Shown piece after piece: positions 2,193-24,002 of a DNA stretch of 64,000 nucleotides. The notes under the pieces are model-generated. The model did no database searches. It had not been told where the DNA came from and saw only the letters and a program-made list of their open reading frames with translations. Every line of letters starts with the position of its first letter. Position 1 is the stretch's first letter. Source of the DNA: Nannocystaceae bacterium ST9 (GTDB lineage: Bacteria; Myxococcota_A; Polyangia; Nannocystales; Nannocystaceae); the NCBI GenBank assembly GCA_048320885.1, contig JBLWFJ010000001.1, forward strand, positions 1,413,642 through 1,477,641, given 5' to 3'. The position numbers and the translations under genes were made by a program.

Positions 2193-5100
2193 GTGCGGGG
2201 CATGAACGGCATGAACGGCATGACCGTCGACGAGTTGGTCCGACGCCTCGATCGCCTCGACCACACCGAGCGGCTCGCCGAGCTGATCGCCCATGGCCGC
2301 GCCCTCTCGCCGACCGACGCCGAAGCGCTGAGCCGGGCGCTCTTCGCCGGCGACGTGCACCGTCGACTGCTGGCACTTCAGCTCGCCCAGCTGGTCTCGA
2401 CCGGCGCCCGACCGAGCGCGCTGATCTGGCAGGCGCTCGACGATCGCTCGCTCGCGGTCCGCAGCCTGGCCGCCAAGCTGGTCGGCCGCGACGCCGACGC
2501 GGTCCCGATCGCGCTGCTCGATCGGCTCGACGCCGCCTCGCTCTCGGTGTTGTTTCGCCGGGTCGTCCGCCAGGGTCGAGCCGCGATCGCCGAGCCGCTG
2601 GTCGAGGGCCTGATCGCCCGCGAGCGCATGGCCGAGGCTTGCTACCTGCTGCCGGTCTGTCGGGTCGAGGCGATCCTCGGCTGGCTCGACGCGGTCGCCT
2701 GGCCCGAGACGATCTGGATCCGCCTGGCCAAGTACCGCGCCCCCCTGCTGATCGATCGGATCACCGCGGCCTTCGCCGCGACGCCGGAGCGACCCGACCT
2801 GATCTGGCGACGCTTCCACCCGGGCGTGTGGGCCCGGCTGGCCCGACGCGAGCCGGCGACCCTGGCCGCGTGGATCGATCGCCACGCCGACGCCGAGTCG
2901 CTGCCCCACGAGCTGGCCTCCGCGCTGCCCCACCTGGTCCGCTGGTCGCCGACGTGGATCGCCGGCGTGCTCGGAGCTCGCGTCGCCTGGGTCGCGCAGA
3001 TCGGGCTGCCCAAGGGCCTGGCCGCCCGCGCGAGCGAGGTCGACGACGCGACCCTGGCCCCGCTCGTCCGCGGGCTCGCACGCTCGGCCCCGCACCTGCT
3101 CGGCCAGCTGCTCGCGCGCATGCCCTACCCGCGCCGCGCGAGCCTGTTCGCGCTGGCGATCGAGCCGCTCGAGACCGCGAGGATCGAGTGGCCGACCAGC
3201 CTGCTCGCGGTGCTGCCGACGGCGCTGCGCGATCGCGAGGCCGCCCGCATGCTCGCGCTGACCCGAGCCCGCACCGACGCGACCTGGCGGCGCGAGCTGC
3301 TGGGCCTGCGATCGATCGTCGCCGCTCGGCCCGAGCTCGAGCGCGAGGGCCAGTCTGCGCAGGCCAGCGATCGCGCCGAGGCCCACGCCGCGCTGGTTCG
3401 CAGCAGCTGGCGCTCGCGCGCCGGCATGCCCGAGACGCTCGCGTGGCTCAAGCGGATCCGCAACGAGCAAGACCCGGTGCGGCTCGCCGTCATGATCGCG
3501 CTCGCCGAGGCGCCCGGTCACCACTTCGACGATCCCGGCGCGCTCGATCTCGTGGTCGCGCCGATCTTCGACGCCCGCGACACCTCGTACGCCACGCGGC
3601 ACCAGGTCGCCCGGCTCGCGCATCGGCTGATGGTCGCCCGCGCGACCGAGCCGAGCTCGCCGATGTTCGAGTTCGGGATCAGCCTGCTCGAGCGGCTGGC
3701 CGGACAAGCCGGCACGCCCGATCTGCCCAACCTCGAGCGCAACCTCCCGCGCGGCGCCGAGCAGGCGATCGTCGACGCGCTCTTGCCTTGGGCCGAGGCC
3801 GCGGGCGAGCGCCGGCAAGAAGATCACCTGGTCCGGCTGTGGACCTCGCTCGGCAAGCGAGCGTGGAAGGTCGCGGCGCTCGGCGAGCGGATCGCCCACC
3901 TGATCTGGCAGGGCAGCAAGGCCGGCGCGCCCTACCGCGTCGCGCACTGGCTGGCCGATCCTCGCACCCGCGACGCGCGAGTCCGCGAGCTGGTCAAGCG
4001 CGATCGCTCGGCGCTCTACCTGCACCCGGTGTTCGAGCACTGCCACCGTCGCCGCCAGTCCCTGCTCGTCGATCGCTTCGCTACCACGGCCCCGCGCGGC
4101 CGCTTTCACGACGGCAAGGTCGTGCTCATCCCGATCGTCGATCGCGGGTTCGAGCGCTGGCCGAGCGAGCTGCAGCGCCAGTACGTCGAGTTGATCGCGC
4201 TGGCCGAGATCGAGCCCAAGCACTTCTCGCAGACCCGCGCCGCGCTGATCTCGATGCGCGCGCGCGTGCCGATCACGAGGGTCGAGGACTTCGCCGACGC
4301 GCTGGCCTCGAGCGAGGTGCCCGTGCGAGAGGCCGCGCTCGCGGCCCTGGTCTGGACCGACGATCCCGCGCCCGCGCTGGCGATCCTGCTCGATCACCTC
4401 GAGGGCGATCAGGCCAGGGTCGCGATGTATGCGATGCCGCGCCTGGCTCGCCTGATCGCCCGCGACCGCTTCGTCGACGCGCTCGCCGAGCTGCTCGCCC
4501 GGCCCAAGCTCAAGGTCACCGTGCACAAGGAGGCCCTGCGCCTGCTCGGCCAGCTCGCGACTCCCCGAGCGATCGCGCTGCTTCGCCAGACCTGGACGCA
4601 GCCGCTGCATCGCGACGTCCGGATCGCCACGCTGCACGCCGCGCGATCGATCCTCAGCCAGGCCGACGCATGGACGATCCTCGCCGAGGCGGCCCGCGAC
4701 GGCGACGCCGACATCGTCCGCGCCCTCGTCGAGGTCCCGCTGATCACGATCGCCGAGCGCCACCGCGGCCGCTACCTCGAGGTGATGCGAGCGGTCGTCG
4801 ATCATGCCAGCCCGATCGCTCGCGCGGCCCTGTTCGCGACGCTGGTCGGCGGCTGGTCGAGCGTCGATCCACGCGTGGCCGTCGAGATCGCCACCAAGGT
4901 GATCGCCCGCATGGATCCCAGCGATCCTTGGCGAGCGGCCGCGCAGGTGGTGGCCGAGGGCGCGCGCTCGAGCGACGTGCACGCCCGGATCGAAGCGTCG
5001 ATCGCCGAGCTGATCGCGGCCGCCGAGCGAGACGTCGCGCCCGCGGGCGAGCGCGATCGCATCGCGCATCAGCGGCTGGTCGGCGTGATCGAGGGACTCG

Positions 5101-5528
5101 CCAACCAGCGCCACCCGATCGCCACCGTGCTGCTCGAGCGACTCGCCGCCGCGCTGCTGAGTCAGCCACATTGGTGGTGGGCCGGGGCGCGCCTGCGGAT
5201 CGCCGCCGCGAGCAACGAGCGGCTCGCCAGCGTATGCGTCGAGCTGATCCGCGCGGCCCCGAGCGAACGTTCGCGACGCGTGATCGAAGACGCGGCCCGG
5301 GCCGCCGCGCAGCTGGCCCTGCGGGACTGGAGCGCGAGCGAGGCCGAGCAAGCGCTCGCCGACCTGCGCGCGGGCGAGGCCGGGGTCGTGGCGGTCGCGA
5401 TGCTCGCGGTGTTCGGGCCGCGCTGGGGGTGGGGTGCTGGCTGGGTCGCGGAGCTCGGCGAGCTGCGCGAGGATCCGGAGCTCGACGTGCGGCTGGCCGC
5501 GCGGGCGGTGTGGTTGGTGAGTGGGTGA
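2193..5528 (+). CDS. Large alpha-helical HEAT/ARM-like repeat protein (~1100 aa), function unknown
   Basis: Leu/Ala-rich, non-degenerate composition across 1111 aa. A GTG at 2193 is followed by ATGs at 2202, 2211 and 2220 (MNGMNGM), so the true start is uncertain. The opposite-strand and alternative-frame ORFs 2175..5351 and 2639..5548 are R/G/P-rich artefacts. Confidence 0.6.
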   Translation: MRGMNGMNGMTVDELVRRLDRLDHTERLAELIAHGRALSPTDAEALSRALFAGDVHRRLLALQLAQLVSTGARPSALIWQALDDRSLAVRSLAAKLVGRDADAVPIALLDRLDAASLSVLFRRVVRQGRAAIAEPLVEGLIARERMAEACYLLPVCRVEAILGWLDAVAWPETIWIRLAKYRAPLLIDRITAAFAATPERPDLIWRRFHPGVWARLARREPATLAAWIDRHADAESLPHELASALPHLVRWSPTWIAGVLGARVAWVAQIGLPKGLAARASEVDDATLAPLVRGLARSAPHLLGQLLARMPYPRRASLFALAIEPLETARIEWPTSLLAVLPTALRDREAARMLALTRARTDATWRRELLGLRSIVAARPELEREGQSAQASDRAEAHAALVRSSWRSRAGMPETLAWLKRIRNEQDPVRLAVMIALAEAPGHHFDDPGALDLVVAPIFDARDTSYATRHQVARLAHRLMVARATEPSSPMFEFGISLLERLAGQAGTPDLPNLERNLPRGAEQAIVDALLPWAEAAGERRQEDHLVRLWTSLGKRAWKVAALGERIAHLIWQGSKAGAPYRVAHWLADPRTRDARVRELVKRDRSALYLHPVFEHCHRRRQSLLVDRFATTAPRGRFHDGKVVLIPIVDRGFERWPSELQRQYVELIALAEIEPKHFSQTRAALISMRARVPITRVEDFADALASSEVPVREAALAALVWTDDPAPALAILLDHLEGDQARVAMYAMPRLARLIARDRFVDALAELLARPKLKVTVHKEALRLLGQLATPRAIALLRQTWTQPLHRDVRIATLHAARSILSQADAWTILAEAARDGDADIVRALVEVPLITIAERHRGRYLEVMRAVVDHASPIARAALFATLVGGWSSVDPRVAVEIATKVIARMDPSDPWRAAAQVVAEGARSSDVHARIEASIAELIAAAERDVAPAGERDRIAHQRLVGVIEGLANQRHPIATVLLERLAAALLSQPHWWWAGARLRIAAASNERLASVCVELIRAAPSERSRRVIEDAARAAAQLALRDWSASEAEQALADLRAGEAGVVAVAMLAVFGPRWGWGAGWVAELGELREDPELDVRLAARAVWLVSG

Positions 5529-5529
5529 T

Positions 5530-7257
5530 TCAATCGACCAGGGTCTGACGCGCGATCAACTTGCTGAACGCACCGCCGCGAGCGAGCAAGTCGGCGTGCG
5601 TCCCTCGCTCGACGATCCGACCTCGCTCGAGCACCACGATCAGATCGGCGTCGCGGATCGTGCTCAGGCGATGGGCGATCACCAGGGTCGTTCGCCCGCG
5701 CTGGAGGGCGACCAGCGCCGACTGCACGATCGCCTCGCTCTCGGCATCGAGGGCGCTGGTGGCCTCGTCGAGGACGAGGATCTCGGGATCGCGGAGGATC
5801 GCCCGAGCGATCGCCACCCGCTGACGTTGACCACCGCTCAATTGCACGCCCCGTTCGCCGATCGACGTGTCGTATCCCGACTCGAGTTGCGCGGCGAATT
5901 GCTCGACATGGGCAGCGCGGGCGGCGGCCTCGACCTCGTCCTCGCTGGCGTCGAGTCGGCCATAGCGGATGTTCTCGCGGATGCTGCCGGCGAAGAGCAT
6001 CGGCTCTTGAGTCACGACCGCCATCCGGCCGCGGAGCTCGGCCACTCGCAGTGACCGAAGATCCACGCCGTCGATCGTGACACGACCCGCGCAAGGATCA
6101 TGGAGGCGAAGCAACAGGCGCGCGAGCGTGGACTTGCCGGCCCCGCTCGTCCCGACCAGCGCGCACGTCCGACCAGCGGGTATGTCGAGATCGATCCCAT
6201 CGAGCACTCGCTCTCCCCGGCCCGGATAGCGAAAATCGACCGATTCGAACTTCACCGCCCCGCGAATCGAGCCGAGCTGACGAGGATTCGGAGAATCCCG
6301 AATCTCGGCGCGAGCATCGAGCAGTTCGAATATTCGGGTCGTCGCGCCGCTCGCGGCTTGGAGATTGGTCCAGAGCCCCGCCAAGCCCTCGACCGCGCCG
6401 GCGACCAGCATCGTATAGAGCATGAATTCGGTCAGCTCGCCCGGGCTGATTCGACCGGCGATGACCATGCGCCCGCCCATGTAGAAGATCACGGCGACCG
6501 CCGTCAGGCTGGCGAACGACGAGAGCGACAGAAACCATCCACCCGCGGCGATGCGTCGACGCGCGAGCGCGAGCCCACGCGCGAGCGCTTCGGAGTACCT
6601 CCCCAGCTCGTACGATTCACGTGTGAACGCCTGAACGGTCTCGATCCCGACGATGCCCTGCTGCATCTCGGCGTTCGCCTCGGCCAGCGCATCTTGGCCA
6701 GCCCGCGCCAATCGACGAATGGCCCGACCACACAGATTCGTCACCACAATGAGCGGTGGGACCAGGGCCAACATCATCGCGGTCAGCGACGGATTTCGAT
6801 GAATCAGAATCGCCACGCCACCGAGCAGCGCCAGCGAATGGCGGGCGGCGAGCGAGAGATCACCGGACACCGCCCGATGCAGGCGCGCGACGTCGTCGGT
6901 CACGCGCGACATCAGCTCGCCGGTCCGGCGTCGGTGAAAGAAGCCGGGGGAGAGGCTCAACAGCCGCGAATAGACCGCGACTCGAAGATCCGCGACCACG
7001 CGCTCGCCGATCCACGCGACCTGCGAGTGGCGCAGGAACGAGAACAGGGCCTGGACGGCGAACAGCCCGATCAGGGTCAGCGTGATTCGCCCGAGCAACT
7101 CGGCATCCTGCGCGCCGAAGGCAGAATCGATGATCGCCCCGAAATAGTAGGGGTGAAGCAGCCCGATCCCGCTGGCGATGATCAGGAAGACGAACGCCGC
7201 GAACATGCGACGCCGGTAAGGCCAAGCCAGACCGAGCAGCCGCCGACCCTCATTCAC
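5530..7257 (-). CDS. ABC transporter, fused permease/ATP-binding exporter (MsbA-like, no peptidase domain)
   Basis: Six-TM N-terminal half, then Walker A GTSGAGKST, signature LSGGQRQRVAIARA and Walker B ILVLDEATSALD. The GTG start overlaps the stop of the upstream PDZ-protein gene (GTGA). Confidence 0.9.
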   Translation of the reverse strand: MNEGRRLLGLAWPYRRRMFAAFVFLIIASGIGLLHPYYFGAIIDSAFGAQDAELLGRITLTLIGLFAVQALFSFLRHSQVAWIGERVVADLRVAVYSRLLSLSPGFFHRRRTGELMSRVTDDVARLHRAVSGDLSLAARHSLALLGGVAILIHRNPSLTAMMLALVPPLIVVTNLCGRAIRRLARAGQDALAEANAEMQQGIVGIETVQAFTRESYELGRYSEALARGLALARRRIAAGGWFLSLSSFASLTAVAVIFYMGGRMVIAGRISPGELTEFMLYTMLVAGAVEGLAGLWTNLQAASGATTRIFELLDARAEIRDSPNPRQLGSIRGAVKFESVDFRYPGRGERVLDGIDLDIPAGRTCALVGTSGAGKSTLARLLLRLHDPCAGRVTIDGVDLRSLRVAELRGRMAVVTQEPMLFAGSIRENIRYGRLDASEDEVEAAARAAHVEQFAAQLESGYDTSIGERGVQLSGGQRQRVAIARAILRDPEILVLDEATSALDAESEAIVQSALVALQRGRTTLVIAHRLSTIRDADLIVVLERGRIVERGTHADLLARGGAFSKLIARQTLVD

Positions 7258-10159
7258 CCTGGATCACCACGCCGGCCGCCCGCTCGGTGTCGAGCGTGAC
7301 CGACGTCCCGATCGGCGCGATCAGTCGATACTGCAAGACATAGCGGCGACCGATCACGTCGTAGCCGTCGATGGCCGTGATCACGTCGCCGACCTGCAGG
7401 CCCGCGCGTTCGGCCGGACCCCCGGATACGATCGCCTCGACCCGCCCGTCCTGCTCGGCTTGGTCGCCGACGTGATCCCAGCGCGCCAGCGTGAACCCGA
7501 ACGAGGCCCGCGGCTCGTCGCCCTGCACTCGCCGCGAGGGGATCGCCAGATCACCGACCTCGAGCGGATTGCCCGGATCGACCGTCACCGTCAGGTGGGC
7601 CTCGGTGAGATCGGGCGGTCGAGCGTCGAGGTTCTCCGGGATCACGTGCAGCGTCACGCGTCCGGTCGGCGGATCCGAGACCACGAAGTGGCCCTGATCG
7701 TCGCTGACGTTGCGCGCGTCCTCTCGCGTGTAGCGGCTGCGCATCTGGGCCGCGAGCGAGGTCGCGACCACGCGAAACCCGGCCAGCGGAGCGCTGGTCT
7801 CGAGTCGCACGACTCGGCCGGACAGCATCGTGCGATCGTCGAGCGCCACGTCGCCGACGTCGACCTCGCCCTCGGCCTCGACCTCGGCCTCGGCGACGCC
7901 CGCCCCCGCGCTGGCGTGCACTCGAATCGCGTAGTCGCCGGCAGGTAGACCGGTGATCGACCAGCGCCCTTGCGAGCGCAAGAACGCCTCGCGCCGGCGG
8001 ACCTGCGCGTCGGCACGCACGACCTCGACGACCAACATGTCGGGCGCACGACCATCGCTCGAGTAGTGGGCCTTGCCGGTGATCTCGCCCGTGCCATGCA
8101 CGACCAGCTCGACCCGATCGCCCGGCGCGACCTCGGTCTGCCGAGCCTCGCCGCCACCTCGGACTCGCGCGCTCAGGGTGTAGCGATCCGGCTGCAGGTT
8201 GCGAATCTCGAACGAGCCGTCGAGCTCGGTCATCTTCGCCGCGCAGCGCTGACGGGGCAGCGCGCCGCGAGCCGGCTCGCTCGGCTCGGCGCACACGAAC
8301 GCCGAGCTCAGCGGCTCGCCGTCGGCCGCGACCACTCGCCCGGTGATCGCTCCATCGCGCGCCGCGACCACGAACTCGACCTCGCTGCGCCCACCGGCCT
8401 CGACCTTCACGGTCGCGTGGACGGCTTCGGCCCGCTCGGGGTCGACCAGCGACTGTCCGGTCGCACCGATCACGTCGACGCCGTAGTCGCCGGGTGGGAG
8501 GTGCTCGAACACGAAGCGCCCTGCTTCGTCGACGATCGTCTCACCGCGGAATCGCCCGTTGCTCGCGTGGCGCTGGACCAGGACGCGAGCTTCGAGGGCC
8601 GGCGACCCGCCTTGCTCGACCACGCGGCCGACCAACGCCGCGCCAGGACGCAGGCGGACCTCGAGCTCGTCCTCGGAGGGCAGCGTCGACTCGGTCGGCG
8701 TATCGAGCGGAAACCAACCCGGCGCGCTGGCCAGCGCCACGTACTTGCCGGCGTCGAGCCCGGTCAGTTCGAAGCGGCCTTCGTGATCGGCGATCGCGGT
8801 CGCGGCCGGCGTGGTCGCGCGAGTCGAGATCACCGCGACCAGAGCGTCCGGGATCGGCTTCGAGCCCGACTCGTCGAGGACTTGGCCGCGCAGGGTCAGG
8901 CCCTGCTCGACCTCGACGCGCAGCTCGCTTCGATCGTCGCGCACGCCGGACACCCGGACCGACTGCCGCTGCTCGACGGGTCGATGGCCGGCGCAGTCGA
9001 CCGCGACCTGGTACTCGCCCGCGATCGGCAGCGAGAGCTCGACGCGACCCGAGCCGTCGGTCGTCGCCGCGATCGCGAGCCCGATGTCTTCCTGGGTCAG
9101 TCGAAGGTTCGCGCCCGGGCAGCCCTGGCCGGTCTCGCGCACCACCACCTCGACGAGCACCGTGCTCCCGCGGTGAACCAGGATGTCGACGTCTTCTCGC
9201 CGTTCGGCGAACTCCAGCACGATCGCGCCCTCGCTCGTGCCGTAGCCCCAGGGTCCCTGGCTGGTGACCTGGAACGCGCCGGCCGACATGCCCGCGATCC
9301 GATAGCCGCCCGCCGCGTCCGAGCGCACCGAGAAGCGCTCGTCGGCGCGCGCCTGACCATCGTCGTCGCTCCGCCGCGCGATCACGAGGGCGTCGGCGAT
9401 CGGCTCGCGCGTCTCGGCGTCGAGCACCTTCCCGGCGATCACCGACTCGGGCAGGAGTCGGAGCACGACCGGACCGCTGGGCACGATCAATCGCTCTTCG
9501 CTCGCGGCATAACCTTCGGCGACCGCCCGAACCACGACCTGCCCCTGCGCGGCCCACAGCTCGAATTCGCCGCCGGGCCCCGAGTGCGCCGCGGCGAAGC
9601 TCGCCTCGCCGGCATCGACGACGCTGACGAACGCGCCCTCGATCACTCCGCCGGTCGCGTCCTCGATGCGACCGGCGATCCGACTCCCGCCGGGGGTCAA
9701 GATCACGCGAACGAGTCCCTCGCTCGGCTCGAGCTCGCCGAGGCGCGGGATCGAGGCCGGGCGATACCCGGCCGCAGAGACTCCGATGCGCCAGCGCTCG
9801 CCGCTCGGCACTTCCAAGCCGTCCGCGAGCCCGGCGGAGTCGGTGGTCACACAGCGCTGCTCCGCGCTCGAGCGAGCCGGGATCGCCAGACACACGCGAG
9901 CGGACGGGATCGGTGCGTCGGATCGATCGACGACCGCGACCGCGATCGTTCGCGGCTCGGCGCGCTCGATTCGCGACTTGCTGGTTTGGGCTCGGGCAGG
10001 GTCCACGAGCTCGGGCTCAGCTGCGAGTTGCGGCTCGTCCGAGCTCGCGCGCTCGGGCTCGAGACCGAGCCACAGACTCACTCCGAGCACACCGAACGCC
10101 GCGACGAGCAGCGCGAGCAGCCAGGTTGGTCGCGAGTTTCGTGGTTGTCGGATGGTCAT
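7250..10159 (-). CDS. Membrane-anchored protein with many carboxypeptidase-regulatory-like beta-sandwich repeats and a C-terminal PDZ domain
   Basis: The ATG at 10159 overlaps the stop of the upstream gene (ATGA). The N-terminal TM segment is TWLLALLVAAFGVLGVSLWLGL. Recurring ~80-aa units carry the motif G.V.D...G.P...A.V (DSAGLADGLEVPSGERWRIGVSAAGY..., ATTDGSGRVELSLPIAGEYQVAVDCAGHRP...). The C-terminal segment GLQVGDVITAIDGYDV is PDZ-like. Confidence 0.7.
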   Translation of the reverse strand: MTIRQPRNSRPTWLLALLVAAFGVLGVSLWLGLEPERASSDEPQLAAEPELVDPARAQTSKSRIERAEPRTIAVAVVDRSDAPIPSARVCLAIPARSSAEQRCVTTDSAGLADGLEVPSGERWRIGVSAAGYRPASIPRLGELEPSEGLVRVILTPGGSRIAGRIEDATGGVIEGAFVSVVDAGEASFAAAHSGPGGEFELWAAQGQVVVRAVAEGYAASEERLIVPSGPVVLRLLPESVIAGKVLDAETREPIADALVIARRSDDDGQARADERFSVRSDAAGGYRIAGMSAGAFQVTSQGPWGYGTSEGAIVLEFAERREDVDILVHRGSTVLVEVVVRETGQGCPGANLRLTQEDIGLAIAATTDGSGRVELSLPIAGEYQVAVDCAGHRPVEQRQSVRVSGVRDDRSELRVEVEQGLTLRGQVLDESGSKPIPDALVAVISTRATTPAATAIADHEGRFELTGLDAGKYVALASAPGWFPLDTPTESTLPSEDELEVRLRPGAALVGRVVEQGGSPALEARVLVQRHASNGRFRGETIVDEAGRFVFEHLPPGDYGVDVIGATGQSLVDPERAEAVHATVKVEAGGRSEVEFVVAARDGAITGRVVAADGEPLSSAFVCAEPSEPARGALPRQRCAAKMTELDGSFEIRNLQPDRYTLSARVRGGGEARQTEVAPGDRVELVVHGTGEITGKAHYSSDGRAPDMLVVEVVRADAQVRRREAFLRSQGRWSITGLPAGDYAIRVHASAGAGVAEAEVEAEGEVDVGDVALDDRTMLSGRVVRLETSAPLAGFRVVATSLAAQMRSRYTREDARNVSDDQGHFVVSDPPTGRVTLHVIPENLDARPPDLTEAHLTVTVDPGNPLEVGDLAIPSRRVQGDEPRASFGFTLARWDHVGDQAEQDGRVEAIVSGGPAERAGLQVGDVITAIDGYDVIGRRYVLQYRLIAPIGTSVTLDTERAAGVVIQGE

Positions 10160-11916
10160 GCCGCGCTCTCTCGATTCATGAGTCGGTCGATGGAAATGAT
10201 CACGCTCGGCCAATCGCCACGCCCGGTCAGGGCGTCGAGGACACCTTCGTACAGTTCGCGACGCTGCTCGTCACGAATCCGCGCGATGACGAAACTGCGA
10301 GTGACGGAGATCTCCTCGTCCGCCACGGTCGGCCAGTCGGTCTGCGCGGCGAGCCGAATTGCGGCGAGCGTATCGAGGTCGCTGCGGCCCTCGGCGATCG
10401 AGCGTGCACCGACGTACACGAGGACATCGATACACAGGGGGCTGCGACTCCGCTCACCGAGCGCGCACGCCAGCGCGGTCAGCGGGCGCTCGTCTTCGAC
10501 CGGGGCCAGGTACGTAAACAGGTTTCGATGGGCGATCGGCTCGAGCGGTTCGCCCGTGTCGATGTGACCGAGATGATCGAACCGAGCGTCGACCGTCAGG
10601 GCGCGAGCGTCGATGCCCCTGGCGCGGGCCAGCTGAAGCACGTAGTGGCCGAAGCGCTGCTGGGCGTCCGGCACACGCAACAGTGACGACGCGAACTTGC
10701 GCAAGCGATGGTTCCACACCGTGCGCTTGTCGAGCAGCGGATCTTCATCGAACAAGCCGATGGTCTGGTTCCAACCCCACTTGCGGATGCGCCCCTCGCC
10801 GTCCGTCGAGGTCATCACCAGGGTCACCAGCCGCCCGGCGGGCGGGTTGCCCGAAAAGAGACGCCAACGTCGGACCATCCCGATTCGACGAAACAGCGGC
10901 CCGAGCCGCTCGCGGATCACCCTCGACACCAGCGAGCCATGCGGCGGATCCCAATATAGCGCGAACACGACGTACGCGCACGCCACCGATAATCCCAGGA
11001 TCATGCCGAGACTCGTCTGTGGACCCCAGGCGTGGATCGAGATCTCCCCGATCGCGAAGAACCAGCGAGGATCGATGAACACGCACAAACAGCCGAACAT
11101 GATGTAGCTGAACAACCATAGGCTGAATGCATATGCGATCGCCAGATGCAACGCCACGGCGCACACCAAGAGACTCGGCCGAAGTTCGGCGATCCAGAGT
11201 CCGAATCCGAGCGCGAACTCCAGAGCCAACGTGCCCCACGTACCCAGCGCGACCATCGGTCGCGTCATGAAAACTCGCGGAATCGGCAATCGGTGGTTTC
11301 GTATGTCGGCGTTGTTCAAGGGATAGAACACGGCGGTGCCCTCGCGCCAGGCCGCGTGCGCCAGCTTGTACCAGCAGTTGTAGAAATAGAGGACGGCCAA
11401 CTCGATCTGCAACAACCGCATGCCCCAAGGCGGCGCCTCGACTCCGACGCCGAGATCGCCCGCGGTCAGCCAGCGATCCAACGACAACGACGCGGTGCAG
11501 GGCGAGCACGCCAACAGCAGCACGGCCATTCGCAGCACGGCGTCTCCACCATAGAGCACGTAGCGGTTGGCGCGATGGATGCGTCGAAATGTCAGATAGG
11601 CCAAACCGGCGGGGACGCTGCCCCCGAGACCGAGCGCGAGCAAGACCCCGAACCCACAGTGCGCGACGAGATACACCCGTGGCCGCCAGCTCATCTCGAC
11701 GATTCGCCACCACACCCCCGACGCCGAAGGTCGCCGCCGCAGGCCGAGCGCGTCGGGGTTCAGCCAGACGTCGGCGTCGACGAGATGCCGAGCGCCGTCG
11801 ACGACCAACAGCGAGCCGAGCATCGCGCGGGCCATACCCAACCCGAACACCAGGATCGGCGCGGTGAAGAAATCGACCAACCAGGTCGCCAAGGTGGACA
11901 ACGATATCGGCTCCAT
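10156..11916 (-). CDS. Polytopic membrane protein, possible HTTM (vitamin-K gamma-carboxylase-like) superfamily member with a C-terminal soluble domain
   Basis: ATG at 11916 (MEPISLSTLATWLVDFFTAPILVFGLGMA...). About eight hydrophobic helices in the first ~330 aa are followed by a ~250-aa soluble region. The family assignment is pattern-based and unverified. Confidence 0.55.
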   Translation of the reverse strand: MEPISLSTLATWLVDFFTAPILVFGLGMARAMLGSLLVVDGARHLVDADVWLNPDALGLRRRPSASGVWWRIVEMSWRPRVYLVAHCGFGVLLALGLGGSVPAGLAYLTFRRIHRANRYVLYGGDAVLRMAVLLLACSPCTASLSLDRWLTAGDLGVGVEAPPWGMRLLQIELAVLYFYNCWYKLAHAAWREGTAVFYPLNNADIRNHRLPIPRVFMTRPMVALGTWGTLALEFALGFGLWIAELRPSLLVCAVALHLAIAYAFSLWLFSYIMFGCLCVFIDPRWFFAIGEISIHAWGPQTSLGMILGLSVACAYVVFALYWDPPHGSLVSRVIRERLGPLFRRIGMVRRWRLFSGNPPAGRLVTLVMTSTDGEGRIRKWGWNQTIGLFDEDPLLDKRTVWNHRLRKFASSLLRVPDAQQRFGHYVLQLARARGIDARALTVDARFDHLGHIDTGEPLEPIAHRNLFTYLAPVEDERPLTALACALGERSRSPLCIDVLVYVGARSIAEGRSDLDTLAAIRLAAQTDWPTVADEEISVTRSFVIARIRDEQRRELYEGVLDALTGRGDWPSVIISIDRLMNRESAA

Positions 11917-11924
11917 CGGTGTCC

Positions 11925-13172
11925 TCACGCGCGTGGCGCGTCCAGCCACGCGCCCACCCCCTTGCGAACCAACAGCTTGCCGAGCATCAGCTGGTCGTCT
12001 TCGCCCAGTTGGGCGAACGTTCGCACGACCACGGGGCCTTCGGCGCCACAGAGCTGTCGAAGCGAAGCCTCGAACTTGGCCGGCAACAAGAGCGCGTGAT
12101 TGTTGGCCTCGATTCGGCAAGCGGGAAGCCGACCTGGACCCTCGAGCACGCGAATCAAGGGACGGTCGCCCAGCGCGACTCGGCTGTCCAACGTCATCGC
12201 GTCGAGGTCGGCGAGCGCCGCGAGCCGACCCGCGGCCATGCAGTATTGCTGACGCCGGAGATCGTCGTGCAACCGCGCGACACCGGCCTCGGGCTCGAGG
12301 TGCGCCAACGAGCGCTCCAACCCCGCCCGGGTCGCCGCGATGGCGAGCTCGTCCTCGTCGGCCGCAGCGTCGAGGCGAGGCGAAAACAGCGCTCGACGGA
12401 GGGCCGGGTCTTCGGCGATCTCCGCGAGCGCACGATCGAACGCCCGCGAGACCGCGTCGTAGACCGTGAAGGGCCTGACCCCGATCGCCACGTGAATGCT
12501 GACCCCCTCGCTTCGCTCCGCAAAATGAGGAAACCCGCGAGGGATGTAGAGAGTGTCTCCGGGGCCCAACTCCACGTCGAGCACCAGATCGTCGGCGCTG
12601 GTTCGTGCCACACCGAAATTTCGCTGGTGTGGAAGCGGGGCCACGAAGCGCGGTGCGTAGACCTTCCAGCGCTTGCGACCGCGGACCTGCAGGGCGAACA
12701 CGTCGACGATGTCGTAGTGGAGATCGAGCGCCGACTCGGAGGCGGACGTCGGCGTGACGATCACGTGGCCCTCGGTGCAGGAGTTGAACACTCCCGCGAT
12801 CGTCCTGGCGAGCGCACAGATCCGCGGAAAGTTGGTCTCGGTGAAGGTCAACACGAGCGAAGCGCCACGCGCGAACTCGTCGAGCACCCGCTCGGTGTCC
12901 AACTCGTTGGCCAGGTGCTTGTTCGGTGAATAATGACGCGTGGACAGGTACTGTCGTGGTGCGATGGATCCCTCGCGCGACAACCTCAGGGTCGCGCGAT
13001 TGAAAGCGCCAATCAGCAACGCTCGCTCGATCTCGTCGAGATCGACGAGATCACTGAACCGCGAGGGATCGTCGCGGACGATGTGGCGTGCTCGTCGCTC
13101 CCAGAGCGTCGCAGTGAACTCCGCCAAAGTCACCGGCGCCAATAGCTTGGCGATTGCGTCGGCGTCGGTCAT
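11925..13172 (-). CDS. JmjC-domain / cupin-4 family 2OG-Fe(II) oxygenase (RoxA/YcfD-like protein hydroxylase)
   Basis: ATG at 13172 overlaps the upstream stop (ATGA). The motif LDLHYDIVDVFALQVRGRKRWKVY matches the cupin_4 HxD..DVF..Q..G.K.W core. Confidence 0.8.
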   Translation of the reverse strand: MTDADAIAKLLAPVTLAEFTATLWERRARHIVRDDPSRFSDLVDLDEIERALLIGAFNRATLRLSREGSIAPRQYLSTRHYSPNKHLANELDTERVLDEFARGASLVLTFTETNFPRICALARTIAGVFNSCTEGHVIVTPTSASESALDLHYDIVDVFALQVRGRKRWKVYAPRFVAPLPHQRNFGVARTSADDLVLDVELGPGDTLYIPRGFPHFAERSEGVSIHVAIGVRPFTVYDAVSRAFDRALAEIAEDPALRRALFSPRLDAAADEDELAIAATRAGLERSLAHLEPEAGVARLHDDLRRQQYCMAAGRLAALADLDAMTLDSRVALGDRPLIRVLEGPGRLPACRIEANNHALLLPAKFEASLRQLCGAEGPVVVRTFAQLGEDDQLMLGKLLVRKGVGAWLDAPRA

Positions 13173-13954
13173 GGCGCCCCCGCGCGCGACCGAGTCGATA
13201 TCCACCGCGTGCGATCGAGCAATCGATCGACGGCCTCGTCGGTCAGGCGAAATCCACAGCTGACTCGGCGTGTTCGCGTGGTCACGGCATGCCAGAACAA
13301 GGGTGACTCGCTCCTCACCGAGAATAGATTGAGCACACCGGCGCGCTCCGGCATTCGTACGACTCGGGTGCCGTCCCAATAGCGAAAATCGCTGCCCTCG
13401 TCGTCGTCACAATGGACGACGTAGGCTCGCCAGCCGGCCTCCTGGGCTCGATTCGAATGCCAAGGCACGAACCCGCCACGTGGGCACAGGTTCAACCCGC
13501 GAATGCGATCGAAGCCCTCTCCGATGCAGGTCCGCCACGTGGCTTCGAGGGCGCGTATTGCCGGCGCGTGCATGCGGCCGAGCAGGACGCCTCGATACTG
13601 CAACGCCACCCGCCGTCCCCCTCGGCGTAGCTCGCACGCAAACGGATTTGCAGGATCGCTCGCCTGGTGACGAACGACGCCGTCCCACTCGGTCGCTTGG
13701 GCTTCGGCGTACGTGCGTCGACCGGAGTGCCACCAATCACGCAGTTGCTCTTCCACGGTCGCGCGACTCACGTCGACGGCGCCCTGGGTCATGTGACCGA
13801 GTTCCTGGTCTTCGCGGGACAACAGCGGGGCCATGTCGACGATGGGCACGACCTCGCAGAGCGCCTGAGCAATCACCCGAGTCGCCAGCCACGCGCGCGT
13901 CCCCTCGTTCGTCGAACACAGGTCGATCTGATAGACCCACTCACTCATCGACAT
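13169..13954 (-). CDS. Hypothetical protein, 261 aa, possibly a second oxygenase/cupin-like enzyme; first enzyme gene after the precursor-like ORF
   Basis: ATG at 13954 (MSMSEWVYQIDLC...) with non-degenerate composition. Contains WHSN...VVHCDDDEG...FWHAV His/Asp clusters. No family could be recognised with confidence. Confidence 0.5.
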   Translation of the reverse strand: MSMSEWVYQIDLCSTNEGTRAWLATRVIAQALCEVVPIVDMAPLLSREDQELGHMTQGAVDVSRATVEEQLRDWWHSGRRTYAEAQATEWDGVVRHQASDPANPFACELRRGGRRVALQYRGVLLGRMHAPAIRALEATWRTCIGEGFDRIRGLNLCPRGGFVPWHSNRAQEAGWRAYVVHCDDDEGSDFRYWDGTRVVRMPERAGVLNLFSVRSESPLFWHAVTTRTRRVSCGFRLTDEAVDRLLDRTRWISTRSRAGAP

Positions 13955-13983
13955 GCTCGCGGTTCACGAAGGAGGATTGAAGG

Positions 13984-14003
13984 TCCCCGGATCCGTCCGG
14001 GGA
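13984..14003 (-). terminator. Perfect 8-bp stem / 4-nt loop hairpin (TCCCCGGA tccg TCCGGGGA) 6 nt after the precursor stop, a possible partial terminator or attenuator
   Basis: Inverted repeat read directly from the sequence. No strong U-tract follows, so read-through into the enzyme genes is expected. Confidence 0.3.
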
Positions 14004-14009
14004 TTCTCG

Positions 14010-14258
14010 TCAGCCAGACGCGAGATCGTCGGTCAGATCACCAGTGACGTCGTCGGTGTCCGTGGCGTCCGTGGACGTGGACGTGGTGCCGCCGAAGTCA
14101 CCCACCCAATCATTCGATTCGAGTGCAGACACCCGGCCGCCGGCGATTGCGATGAGCCTGGCCTCCCACCACGCGTCGGAGCCAGGTTGGAGTTCGGGTG
14201 TCGTTGGATTCTGTTTATTCTGATCCGATACCGGATCCTGGTCATGTTTCTTGGTCAT
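14010..14258 (-). CDS. Candidate precursor peptide (82 aa): leader ending ...EARLIAIAGG, then an Asp/Thr/Ser-rich acidic core
   Basis: The ATG at 14258 is preceded by GGGAAAA. Codon usage is unusually A/T-rich for this genome (aaa cat gat gta aat aaa aat cca aca gaa caa). Product: MTKKHDQDPVSDQNKQNPTTPELQPGSDAWWEARLIAIAGGRVSALESNDWVGDFGGTTSTSTDATDTDDVTGDLTDDLASG. It is the first gene of the modification/export operon. Confidence 0.4.
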   Translation of the reverse strand: MTKKHDQDPVSDQNKQNPTTPELQPGSDAWWEARLIAIAGGRVSALESNDWVGDFGGTTSTSTDATDTDDVTGDLTDDLASG

Positions 14259-14305
14259 GATTTTCCCATTGTAGCGAAGAGAACACTGCAGCATGCGGCG
14301 CAACC

Positions 14306-14335
14306 TTTGTAGCGCTAATCATTGGCCATGGTCAA
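14306..14335 (-). promoter_or_regulatory. Putative sigma70-like promoter for the precursor operon (TTGACC, 18 nt spacer, TACAAA)
   Basis: Minus-strand reading ...ctcTTGACCatggccaatgattagcgcTACAAAggttgc..., about 50 nt upstream of the ATG, within the AT-richest intergenic stretch of the window. Confidence 0.25.
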
Positions 14336-14497
14336 GAGATATTTACCTCGACAAGCCTGCTGGCCGTAATTTGGATCGAGGTGGCACCCCCACGATGTAT
14401 TCGGCGTTTCGACCACGACAGGATCGACCGAGGATGGCCCAGTCGCCGGGCCGATCACGAGCACGCAGCGTCGCCTCGCGAGCTATCCTCCCCGCCG

Positions 14498-14971
14498 ATG
14501 TCCGAAGAGCCGAGCGACGACCCGACCGACACCCCGATCGAGTACGAGCCGAGCGACGCGCTGATGGACCTCGTCGAGATGGCGATGACCCACGCGCTCG
14601 ACTCGATCGGCGAGGGCGGACCGCTCGTGCCCTTCGTGGTGTTCGTCGCCGCGGGCGAGCGCAAGCTCGAGCGCTTCTTGGTCGGGGCGTCGGACGACGA
14701 GGACAGCTGGGATCTCGGGCTCTCGGTCGAGCAGGCCAAGCAGTTCACGACCACGCTCGCGGGCAAGGCCGAGCTCGCGGCGATGGCCGTCGACGGCCGG
14801 GTTCGCGCCGAGGACGGCTCGCTGCTCGACTGCGTGTTCGTCGAGGCCTTCGAGGCGACCGGGCCCTGCGCGCTGTGTTTTGGGCAGTGTTACCAGCCGG
14901 CGAGCGAGGGCCAGGCGTTCGCGTTGCTCGGCGAGGGCATGCTGCTCGACACGCTCGTACCGATGTGGTGA
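14498..14971 (+). CDS. Hypothetical acidic protein, YbjN-like domain (paralog of 15858..16253)
   Basis: ATG at 14498 (MSEEPSDDPTD...) within ORF 14381..14971. Shares an ...F..(E/D)DEDSW... segment with the downstream YbjN-like gene. Confidence 0.5.
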   Translation: MSEEPSDDPTDTPIEYEPSDALMDLVEMAMTHALDSIGEGGPLVPFVVFVAAGERKLERFLVGASDDEDSWDLGLSVEQAKQFTTTLAGKAELAAMAVDGRVRAEDGSLLDCVFVEAFEATGPCALCFGQCYQPASEGQAFALLGEGMLLDTLVPMW

Positions 14972-15023
14972 GCCCGCTGCCGCTGCGCTTGCGCTCGACC
15001 CAAGGAAGACCAATCCTGTCGTC

Positions 15024-15851
15024 GTGCCCGCCCGCCGCCCGATCTCCGCCGGCCAAGTCGTGCGGCGGATCGTCGGGCTCGACACCGAGGTGCGGCTGCG
15101 CGAGTGGACGGTGTGGATCCCCGGCTTGTCCGAGGCGCACGACGGCCTGCGAGTCGCCCACCTCAGCGACATCCACGTCGGGCTGGTCACGCCCGATCAG
15201 CGCATCCGCAACGCGGTCGAGCTGATCGCCTCGGTCGAGCCCGATCTGTGCGTGCTGACCGGGGACTTCGCCAGCCGGCGGCCCTCGCCGCTCGAGCGGC
15301 TCGGCAAGCTGCTGCGCGGGCTGCCCGAGCCGACCTACTTCGTGCTCGGCAACCACGATCATCGGGTCGACGCCGCCAAGGTCACCACCGAGCTCGAAGG
15401 CATCGGCTACGTCCACCTCGACAACGAGCACCGCACGATCGAATTCGGCGGCCACCCGCTGCACCTGATCGGCCTCAACGATCCGGTCACGCGTCGGCAT
15501 CGGCCCGAGCAGGCGGTCGCCGGGCTGCCCGAGGGCGGCACTCGCCTGCTGCTCGCCCACCAGGCCGAGAGCCTGGCCGAGGTGCTCGCGCTCGGGCAGC
15601 ACGTCGACCTCTGCGTCAGCGGCCACACCCACGGCGGGCAGATCTACCTGCCGGGGCTCACCGATCGGATGATGGCGCGCATGGGCCTGCGCCACGTTCG
15701 TGGGCTTCGCCGGCTCGACGACATCGGGCCCTGGCTGCACGTGACCCACGGGGTCGGGGCCGCGGTCATGCCCTTGCGCGTGGCCTCGCGGCCCGAAGTC
15801 GGGCTGCTGACGCTGCGCCGCGATCGGACCGATCGCGCGTTCGTGGGCTGA
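15024..15851 (+). CDS. Metallophosphoesterase (calcineurin-like phosphoesterase)
   Basis: Motifs LSDIHVG, GDF, GNHDH and GHTHGG in the canonical order. The start (GTG 15024) is uncertain. The upstream part of ORF 14880.. is R-rich junk. Confidence 0.75.
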   Translation: MPARRPISAGQVVRRIVGLDTEVRLREWTVWIPGLSEAHDGLRVAHLSDIHVGLVTPDQRIRNAVELIASVEPDLCVLTGDFASRRPSPLERLGKLLRGLPEPTYFVLGNHDHRVDAAKVTTELEGIGYVHLDNEHRTIEFGGHPLHLIGLNDPVTRRHRPEQAVAGLPEGGTRLLLAHQAESLAEVLALGQHVDLCVSGHTHGGQIYLPGLTDRMMARMGLRHVRGLRRLDDIGPWLHVTHGVGAAVMPLRVASRPEVGLLTLRRDRTDRAFVG

Positions 15852-22689: not shown

Positions 22690-22716
22690 CGCGCCGTCCC
22701 GTGTAGCATCCCCGGC

Positions 22717-23950
22717 ATGGCCAGCGCCACGAGCTTCTGCCCCGAGTGTGGAACCGAGAACCCCGGCGACGCCAACAAGTGCAGCGCGTGCGGACGTTCG
22801 CTCGACGCGATGGCCGAGCTCGAGCGAGCCGGCAAGGTCGTGCGCGGCCGCAAGCTCCACGGGTCGGTCGCCGCGACCGCGGCCGGCGTGTGCGTCGGCT
22901 TCGTGGTGCTCGCCTGGATCGCCGGGCTCTCGCTGCGGCTCGACGTCGAGACCGTGACGCAGTTCGACGGCGAGCAGTTCCGGGCGGTCGAGCTGCTCGC
23001 CGCCGAGGCCGGACTCTGGCAGGTGTTCGGCAACGTGGTCGGGTTCGCGGCCGCCGGGCTGATCGCCGCGTCGGTGTTCGGCGGGCGCTATCTCAAGGAG
23101 GTGCTGCTCGGGGCCGCGGCCGGGCTGGCCCTGCAGGCGCTGATCTGGCTGGCGATGGTCCAGAAGGCCGGCGGCAGCCTCGCCGGCGATCTGTGGATCG
23201 TCGGCGAGGGCTTCGTGATGCGCGGGCCGGCGCCGCTGCTGCTCGCTCAATTGCTGCTGCTCATGCTCTTCGGCGCGATGCTGGCCGCGTTCACCGGCTT
23301 CGTCGTGCGCGAGCTGATCACCGGCAAATCCGAGTGCGTGCACTGCCATCGCAGCCACGCGATCCGACCCCAGCCGCCCGCTCGCTGCCCGCACTGCGAC
23401 GCCGACCAGGTCCGCGACGGCGTGCAGTGGCCCTGGGTGCTGGTGTTCGCGGCCGCCGGCACGCTGGTCTGGGCGCTGGTCTTGGCGTTCGCCCGCGAGC
23501 CCCTCGGGTTCGCGCTCGAGTGTCGCGAGTCGCTCGCCGCCGACACGCTCACGCCGGCCTGCGACGCCGCCTTGCGCAACGACGACTACACGATCTTCGT
23601 GATCGAGCGGACCCGGACCTCGCTGAGCTTCTGGGCGATCGACCAATGGCTCTTCCTCGAGGTCGGCGCGGCCTGGATGTTCATGGGCCCGGTCGCGCTG
23701 ATGTTCGCGGTCAAGCGAGGCGCCCGAGCCTCGGCGGCGGCCCTGATCCCCACCTTGTGGTTGTTGGCCAGCTTCGTGGTGATGGTCGTGCTCGCCGACC
23801 TCGGCGGCAGCGAGCAGGGCTTCTTGTTCCTGATGCGGCTGCAAGTGCTCGCGTTGGTGATCTGGGGGGGTCGCGGGCGCGCTCGGTCTCGCGCTGGCCT
23901 ACAAGCTTCGCTTCCGCAGCGAGGCCGCGTACCTCGACGAGATCGAGTGA
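22717..23950 (+). CDS. Zinc-ribbon (CPECG...CSACG) multi-TM membrane protein carrying a +1 frameshift in a G7 run at 23864-23870
   Basis: ATG at 22717 (MASATSFCPECGTENPGDANKCSACGRSL...). The reading frame becomes R-rich junk after ...LALVIWG at the G7 run, and the frame starting at 23870 completes a clean TM/C-terminus VAGALGLALAYKLRFRSEAAYLDEIE* (stop 23948-50). Either a sequencing error or a pseudogene. Confidence 0.55.
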
Positions 23951-24002
23951 TCGATCGCAGCGAGCGACCCACACGCGCGCGTGGCTCCTGTACGCTGGGC
24001 GT

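Follow-up and report, generated by a model that had tools for sequence, protein, structure and literature searches.

Organisation of the operon

A 64,000-nt stretch of the genome of Nannocystaceae bacterium ST9 (assembly GCA_048320885.1, contig JBLWFJ010000001.1, positions 1,413,642 to 1,477,641; hereafter the window) carries an operon on its minus strand, at 5530-14258, which is a candidate biosynthetic operon for a peptide which is made on the ribosome and modified post-translationally (RiPP). ORF calling over the window resolves it into six head-to-tail open reading frames (ORFs), here called A to F. Gene A (14010-14258) encodes a small peptide of 82 aa. It is followed by gene B (13169-13954; 261 aa), encoding a protein which resembles 2-oxoglutarate (2OG) oxygenases; gene C (11925-13172; 415 aa), encoding a JmjC protein; gene D (10156-11916; 586 aa), encoding an HTTM membrane protein; gene E (7250-10159; 969 aa), encoding a beta-sandwich/PDZ protein; and gene F (5530-7257; 575 aa), encoding an ATP-binding cassette (ABC) exporter. 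An initial annotation of this DNA counted seven genes. Six are present, no seventh is found within 5530-14340, and the gene list in that annotation also holds six.

The genes are tightly packed. B and C overlap in an ATGA at 13169-13172, D and E in an ATGA at 10156-10159, and E and F share 8 nt (GTGAATGA) at 7250-7257; these junctions are as first described. The gap between C and D is 8 nt and that between A and B is 55 nt. This packing implies translational coupling, which counts in favour of a RiPP operon.

The window as a whole has a guanine plus cytosine (GC) content of 69%. Gene A, which had been singled out as low in GC, indeed stands at 0.60 against 0.70-0.74 in the flanks; B, C, D and F are at 0.65-0.66 and E is at 0.715. 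GC at third codon positions (GC3) is 0.69-0.81 in A, B, C, D and F and about 0.9 in the flanks. Because A to D and F fall below the flanks in both measures while E matches the genome, the composition suggests that the operon was gained horizontally, or that E has a separate history. The lowest GC of the region (0.54-0.59) is found in the intergenic region upstream of A (14259-14497, minus strand). A simple sigma-70 scan found no consensus promoter upstream of A; the operon promoter is presumed to lie in this interval.

The precursor-like peptide

The product of gene A is labelled hypothetical protein ACNOYE_06025 by NCBI (MFV8750087.1) and has no Pfam or NCBIfam match. Its N-terminus is hydrophilic and varies among homologues; an invariant GSDAWWEARLIAIAGGR block comes next, and the tail, which is acidic and rich in Ser, Thr and Asp, ends TDDVTGDLTDDLASG. 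This agrees with the acidic, Asp/Thr/Ser-rich character first ascribed to the peptide. The precursor sequence has no signal-peptide-like hydrophobic N-terminus. The peptide family has twelve members, ten from a profile search of 5.8 billion proteins and two found by following distant homologues of B. All twelve share G-S-x-x-W-W-x-x-R-L-(5)-G-(n)-R in alignment (positions G26, S27, W30, W31, R34, L35, G41 and R42), and their C-terminal parts differ in length and composition.

Among the closer relatives, synonymous changes outnumber non-synonymous changes in the 16-codon conserved block, by 8 to 2 between the window and the related locus L002 and by 5 to 0 between L002 and L005. The frame is thus translated and under purifying selection, and by this pattern of substitution the 82-aa ORF is a real gene. 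The GSxxWWxxRL…G…R block looks like a leader, that is, a recognition element, and the acidic Ser/Thr/Asp-rich C-terminal part looks like a core which would be modified. Type 1 cores end …TDDV[CT]GDLTDDLAS(S)G and are found in the window and in P0157, P0158, P0160 and P0161. In the divergent peptides of L013 and L014 the tail is also rich in Asp and contains GDL, GDD or CDL. Cores of type 2 have the ending …GITT[SA]TLE….

A GC-rich perfect 8-bp hairpin (UCCCCGGA-CGGA-UCCGGGGA, then CCUUC) lies 6 nt past the stop of A, at 13984-14003 on the minus strand. Hairpins of other sequence occur at the same position in L002, L005, L009, L007/L015 and L014. The terminator scan did not flag the element of the window, which is without a T-run. 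Compared with shuffles, its fold gives z = -1.3 to -1.65, which is not significant singly in GC-rich sequence. Since single folds are not significant, the argument for the hairpin rests on its recurrence with changed sequence. A hairpin after the precursor gene is the usual layout of RiPP operons, in which the precursor transcript must outnumber the enzyme transcripts. The element can be considered a candidate attenuator or transcript-stabilising stem which sets the ratio of precursor to enzyme and would hold precursor transcripts above enzyme transcripts.

Related loci and the conserved core

Gene order could be compared among several related loci. L001, L004, L007 and L008 are overlapping pieces of near-identical operons from one sample series, and pieced together they have the order A-B-C-D. 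L015 has A-B and L003 has C-D-E. L002, a 43.6-kb contig, has A-C-D-F with unrelated genes after it, and L009-L011 have the same order, A-C-D-F. The sequence of L005 is that of contig L006/L012 of a Myxococcales metagenome-assembled genome (MAG), with the order A-C-D-F-E. Of the divergent loci, L013 has A-B-C-D and L014 has C-A-B-D. The window, with A-B-C-D-E-F, carries all six genes.

The JmjC and HTTM genes adjoin the peptide gene in every locus which reaches far enough, with HTTM identities of 35-63%. The ABC gene is present in four of four loci reaching far enough, and E in three of the four which extend far enough past the HTTM gene. The invariant core of the system is the peptide, the JmjC protein and the HTTM protein. 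The initial annotation had proposed a search for HTTM, JmjC and a short acidic ORF together in other genomes; the combination is repeated in the related loci. It had also treated loss of the small ORF from beside the enzymes as fatal to its proposal, and the ORF is kept in every related locus with readable surroundings.

When the HTTM alignment was compared with 185,579 GTDB species-representative genomes, one locus was found, in the Myxococcales MAG. A metagenome collection of 241 million records gave no match to the leader DNA pattern, which matches all the loci compared here, or to the JmjC alignment. The system is very rare, or confined to recent samples. Upstream flanks differ among the loci. 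That of L007 encodes a resistance-nodulation-division (RND) pump and an outer-membrane efflux protein and that of L015 a polyketide synthase (PKS) module, while the window has a metallophosphoesterase gene there. The cluster is thus taken to start with the peptide gene.

The HTTM protein

The proposal of the initial annotation depended on D being HTTM-like. D scores 49.8 bits against PF05090 (cut-off 27.7), and its homologues in L013 and L014 score 33.8 and 55.1 bits. The protein of strain ST9 which NCBI names HTTM domain-containing protein (MFV8750085.1) is 100% identical to it. The start chosen by NCBI lies 8 residues later, giving 578 rather than 586 aa. D is polytopic, with the HTTM domain in its N-terminal ~290 aa and a second, conserved domain in its C-terminal ~265 aa.

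One of the nearest known systems is that of the human vitamin K-dependent carboxylase GGCX. D residue K184, within the invariant motif YFYNCWYK, aligns opposite GGCX K218 in a profile alignment which is weak (E ~0.01). GGCX K218 is the base which deprotonates vitamin K hydroquinone, and the K218A mutation abolishes activity (bioRxiv 10.1101/2025.02.09.637231). K184 is invariant in seven D homologues down to 35% identity, as are W190, H114, Y-G-G-D 122-125 and H257. The two proteins have in common the HTTM domain and this Lys, a large C-terminal domain on the Lys side of the membrane (predicted for D), and a ribosomal substrate, putative here, in which an N-terminal recognition segment precedes an acidic region. 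They differ in that their sequences are marginally similar over the HTTM domain alone, the C-terminal domain of D being unrelated by sequence. The active site of D is predicted to be cytoplasmic, not extracytoplasmic, and menaquinone would take the part of the quinone. Glu is less prominent in the cores than Asp, Thr and Ser, and the operon adds two Fe/2OG oxygenases and an ABC exporter.

The orientation of D was predicted from its helices and charges. K184 and the C-terminal domain have four predicted helices between them, which places both on the same side of the membrane. Each of the seven D homologues has 16-23 Lys plus Arg residues on that side and 1-2 on the opposite side, and 9- and 8-transmembrane (TM) segmentations agree. 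By the positive-inside rule, this bias suggests a cytoplasmic location for both the active site and the C-terminal domain. Such a placement of the active site is in keeping with a precursor without a signal peptide, soluble oxygenases and the behaviour of MloH, which acts on an assembly-line intermediate.

SdpB had been named as the only known bacterial precedent for an HTTM enzyme acting on a ribosomal peptide. Among pathways to peptide natural products it is not the only precedent for an HTTM protein, as linaridin clusters carry one and MloH belongs to the malonomycin pathway. According to the 2018 work as it is cited in PMC12186529 and bioRxiv 10.64898/2026.08.19.745780, MloH is a bacterial homologue of vitamin K-dependent carboxylase and carboxylates Asp in malonomycin biosynthesis. 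MloH and D can be compared by description only. On the account given in those citations, MloH resembles D in being a bacterial HTTM enzyme to which a further domain is fused and in belonging to a natural-product pathway, and it carboxylates an aspartyl residue where the cores here are Asp-rich; the substrate of MloH is a hybrid polyketide/non-ribosomal intermediate, not a ribosomal peptide.

Resemblance to SdpB itself raises the question of whether D matures a toxin, as SdpB does within SdpABC of Bacillus subtilis, with the peptide acting in cannibalism or competition. SdpB is an HTTM protein required for maturation of a ribosomal peptide, and the SdpB family TIGR04033 is the only NCBIfam match of D (E 4.5e-12, residues 166-283). 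This match reaches 46.2 bits, far short of the family cut-off of 178.4. The operon does combine a peptide with an HTTM protein and an exporter, and myxobacteria are predatory and undergo developmental lysis. It nevertheless lacks a homologue of SdpA and an immunity pair like SdpI/SdpR; its peptide, which has no Sec signal peptide, is strongly acidic and hydrophilic where SDP is hydrophobic, and sdpABC has no counterpart of the two oxygenases. A maturation system of the SdpABC kind is therefore considered highly improbable.

The two oxygenases

The protein encoded by B has no Pfam or NCBIfam match. It had been described as rich in His and Asp, a description which its composition does not support (H 2.7%, D 6.1%, R 13.4%). 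It is a divergent Fe(II)/2OG-oxygenase-like protein with a double-stranded beta-helix fold and the arrangement H165-x-N167…H221…R229-x-S231, including the 2OG-binding Arg. An exhaustive HMMER search recovered 319 relatives, with matches mostly over residues 150-250. H165, H221, R229 and S231 are invariant in the family and spaced as in HxD…H…RxS; the family signature is YPxGGFxEWH-T-N…GWRxY…LWHxVxSxTxRxSxG. P0054, P0056 and P0071 are fused to DUF6817/HD_4, which is the signature of SmaX. Some members have an N-terminal membrane anchor, and in P0129 the fusion partner is a phage tail assembly chaperone domain.

Gene B adjoins the peptide gene in all five distinct loci with Asp-rich tails and readable surroundings and in none of the three type 2 (GITT[SA]TLE) loci. 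Presence of B tracks the Asp-rich tail, a suggestive pattern among loci which are phylogenetically related and so do not amount to statistical proof. SmaO is also a Pfam-orphan Fe/2OG enzyme, and its target in a RiPP precursor is an Asp adjoining Gly, which it hydroxylates at the beta position (2025 paper, PMC12186529). The product is cleaved to aminomalonate by SmaX, a DUF6817/HD_4 protein, and SmaO-SmaX fusions exist (PMC12186529). Because the B family has fusions to SmaX-type HD domains, comparison with SmaO, made by description only, suggests that B is a SmaO-like Asp beta-hydroxylase which would act on the Asp-rich tail.

The SmaA/SmaO/SmaX system, in which Asp is converted to beta-hydroxy-Asp and then to aminomalonate, resembles the operon in these features of the B family, namely a Pfam-orphan 2OG enzyme with some DUF6817/HD_4 fusions (PMC12186529), and in having a precursor with a GG motif and an Asp adjoining Gly. 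It differs in that the operon has no SmaX/HD-domain gene, B has HxN, and there is no ATP-grasp or other class-defining enzyme. As the operon lacks a SmaX/HD-domain gene, the reaction of B would stop at hydroxy-Asp.

The JmjC/cupin-4 assignment of C was correct: it matches JmjC_2 (PF08007) with 73.9 bits (1.1e-20; cut-off 22). Its closest solved relatives are the ribosomal oxygenases (ROX) NO66, MINA53 and YcfD. It aligns to the iron ligands of NO66, and the triad H152-x-D154…H216 is intact in C and invariant in the five orthologues aligned. C also has a conserved C-terminal extension of ~170 aa without a Pfam match. RiPP recognition element (RRE)-like peptide-binding folds are found fused to PF08007 JmjC domains, and bacterial homologues occur in RiPP-like contexts (2025 survey, PMC12710340). 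By analogy, the extension of C could be a leader-binding domain.

The JmjC oxygenases CzlI (curacozole) and BipG (biphenomycin) modify RiPPs. Like C, they are Fe/2OG JmjC-type enzymes encoded beside a precursor, and they hydroxylate a peptide side chain, as is predicted for C. C differs from them in being of the ribosomal-oxygenase type (NO66/MINA53/YcfD, PF08007) with a long C-terminal extension. JmjC enzymes are accessory tailoring enzymes in those systems; here C is one of two universally conserved enzymes.

The exporter and the periplasmic protein

F is a half-size ABC protein with a transmembrane and an ATPase domain (ABC_membrane and ABC_tran). Its best NCBIfam model is TIGR02204 (MsbA_rel), in agreement with the MsbA-like exporter first proposed. 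ABC genes also follow the HTTM gene in L002, L005 and L009.

TIGR02204 is the model which defines LinT of linaridin clusters, and this bears on a second possible role for D. The operon could be a RiPP operon in which D, rather than being a carboxylase, has the role of the linaridin HTTM-type protein (LinG, or the LinG part of LinH/CypH), which is needed genetically for Thr to be dehydrated to dehydrobutyrine; the product would be a dehydroamino-acid peptide, possibly cross-linked. Linaridin clusters are RiPP clusters which contain an HTTM-domain protein (crdG) of unresolved function, and LinG, LinE and LinL are required for linaridin formation. Further similarities are the Thr/Ser-rich cores, in which T76 is invariant in ten close homologues, and LinM, a PF13649 protein, since a PF13649 methyltransferase adjoins the precursor in two related loci (L007 and L015). 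The methyltransferase is absent from the window, L002, L005 and L009. None of the operon proteins matches the alpha/beta-hydrolase LinE, no gene is left for LinL, and the operon has instead a JmjC protein, a SmaO-like oxygenase and E. The leaders differ as well, and the operon belongs to a myxobacterium, whereas known linaridin clusters are actinobacterial in all but two cases. A putative Asp-directed oxygenase and acidic cores indicate chemistry on acidic residues rather than linaridin-like dehydration. It should be noted that the dehydration step has never been pinned to one linaridin protein, and that D is set beside LinG/CypH by description only. A linaridin-type role for D is considered unlikely.

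E was described at first as a membrane-anchored protein with about nine beta-sandwich repeats and a PDZ domain, and each of these features was recovered. CarboxypepD_reg matches in nine stretches with 245.7 bits, and PDZ_6/PDZ matches at 883-960. There is a single N-terminal hydrophobic segment (14-32). As Arg residues precede this anchor, E is predicted to extend into the periplasm. No protease domain was found in E. Its orthologue in L005 is 58% identical over the full length, about as conserved as C and D, and is placed after the ABC gene; an E-like gene follows the HTTM gene in L003.

Both E and F enter into another explanation, in which the peptide is regulatory or accessory and the enzymes act on another molecule, be it a lipid, a component of the envelope or a larger protein, for example E. 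MsbA, which F resembles, is a lipid flippase; ROX-type JmjC enzymes normally target folded proteins such as ribosomal proteins; and E is large and co-conserved, with no assigned role. The distribution of the genes speaks for the peptide as substrate. The peptide gene is in every locus and is never missing, while E is missing from L002. The leader-like block is invariant while the C-terminal part diversifies, and the accessory B follows the type of peptide tail. The peptide gene is also first in most related loci, with the conserved hairpin next, which is the usual RiPP layout. That the peptide is not the substrate is judged improbable, more so than a linaridin-type role for D.

Proposed pathway

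The favoured reading, which is considered moderately probable, is that the operon is a RiPP biosynthetic operon of an undescribed family. B, C and D would recognise the GSxxWWxxRL block of A. C would hydroxylate a peptide side chain in the cytoplasm, and B would beta-hydroxylate Asp where the core has the Asp-rich …DDV[CT]GDLTDDL… tail. The C-terminal domain of D probably holds the leader. With reduced menaquinone and O2, D would form a strong base on the cytoplasmic side of the inner membrane; this base would deprotonate a core residue, the likeliest outcome being carboxylation of Asp or Glu. F would then move the product over the inner membrane, and E, anchored and spanning the periplasm, would receive it or hand it on. 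The product would be a polyanionic peptide binding a metal (Ca2+ or Fe3+).

The family is placed among the RiPP clusters as a new one, outside the linaridin, SdpABC and SmaO/SmaX systems, because defining features of each were looked for and were absent. The initial annotation had not recognised the gene order from any characterised RiPP class. A literature search found no published description of such an HTTM-RiPP or myxobacterial system. Overall, the observations in the initial annotation were partly confirmed and its interpretation is supported. The gamma-carboxyglutamate (Gla) and beta-hydroxy-Asp chemistry which it envisaged for A is an inference. The beta-hydroxy-Asp half is indirectly backed, because the B family has SmaX-like HD fusions; there is no such gain for the Gla half.

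Several observations weigh against the proposed pathway. Every chemical step in it is inferred from gene data. The similarity of D to human GGCX, which provides its only PDB matches, is slight (E 0.01-0.04) and does not go beyond the HTTM region; residues 323-586 match neither GGCX nor Pfam and have no detectable relatives outside the system. An AlphaFold2 model of D, built on a four-sequence alignment, has a predicted local distance difference test score (pLDDT) of 47.8, too poor for fold comparison, and a GGCX-like clamp is only a candidate. The cytoplasmic orientation predicted for D depends on a hand-made TM segmentation and is opposite to the topology of GGCX. The target of carboxylation is not obvious, as no acidic residue is invariant over the twelve cores (D50 ~90%). 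B has HxN, not the canonical HxD, with Asn in 21 and Asp in 1 of 22 aligned members (H-[ST]-N), and its likeness to SmaO is one of description. Leader removal is unaccounted for: F has no C39 peptidase domain, and its maximal ORF is too short for one, despite the GG motif of the peptide, and none of the six operon proteins contains a protease domain. E is absent from L002, the one large contig, and may be dispensable.

A more specific version of the proposal can be put forward tentatively. D may be a true menaquinone-dependent peptide carboxylase, guided by the leader and facing the cytoplasm, which works with two Fe/2OG hydroxylases to give a hydroxylated, polycarboxylated, metal-binding product; this is possible but doubtful. 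If it were so, no bacterial enzyme before D would have been shown to place Gla-like or carboxy-Asp residues on a ribosomal peptide, and the metazoan GGCX/propeptide system would have here a counterpart in prokaryotes, from which it possibly evolved. How vitamin K-dependent carboxylation arose is an open matter, since HTTM proteins are common in bacteria and a substrate is known for hardly any of them. The operon pairs a bacterial GGCX-like enzyme with a co-conserved, genetically encoded candidate substrate, and the question becomes testable. More generally, the system would define a RiPP family with a ROX-type JmjC oxygenase and an HTTM enzyme as its conserved enzymes, and would give a functional context to the orphan HxN 2OG-oxygenase family (~300 members). 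It could also illuminate the role of HTTM proteins in linaridin biosynthesis, and polyanionic hydroxy- or carboxy-peptides could be new metal chelators or mineral-binding molecules.

Neighbouring genes and annotation

Upstream of A in the window, a divergent plus-strand ORF begins with an ATG at about 14498. The plus strand beyond the start of A carries a 157-aa ORF and the metallophosphoesterase gene, both unrelated to the operon. In L015, the end of a PKS module (ketoreductase, carrier protein and thioesterase) lies at 3-2201, upstream of a methyltransferase gene and the precursor gene; the counterpart neighbours in L007 encode the outer-membrane efflux protein and the RND pump, which is of the AcrB type. 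The PF13649 methyltransferase gene lies immediately upstream of the type 1 precursor gene in both loci (L007 3876-4610, minus strand; L015 2261-3046, plus strand). The two methyltransferases are 90% identical, and their genes have opposite orientations relative to the peptide gene. The methyltransferase was considered as a core component and rejected, as no homologue lies beside the window operon. Just upstream of the precursor gene in L002, at 2171-2551, is a gene for a 126-aa Cys-rich putative lipoprotein without a Pfam match. In L009-L011, short ORFs (68 and 62 aa) which precede the peptide gene were also examined; they show no resemblance to it and appear to be fortuitous, lying in the promoter region.

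No Rfam family was found within 5000-15500. With MFV8750085.1 assigned to the HTTM protein and MFV8750087.1 to the peptide, NCBI numbering leaves one accession only for B and C. Exact-sequence look-ups with gene B and with the peptide matched no record, and the public genome may either leave B (or C) without annotation or carry a different call for it.

At the other end of the operon, a convergent plus-strand ORF (2193-5528) encodes 1111 aa, with a GC3 of 0.91 and no Pfam match; its stop and that of F are about 1 base apart. Further along the window, 22707-27797 on the plus strand encodes a protein of 1696 aa in which a Ser/Thr protein kinase is joined to an AAA_16 ATPase domain, a large signalling protein of a type typical of myxobacteria.

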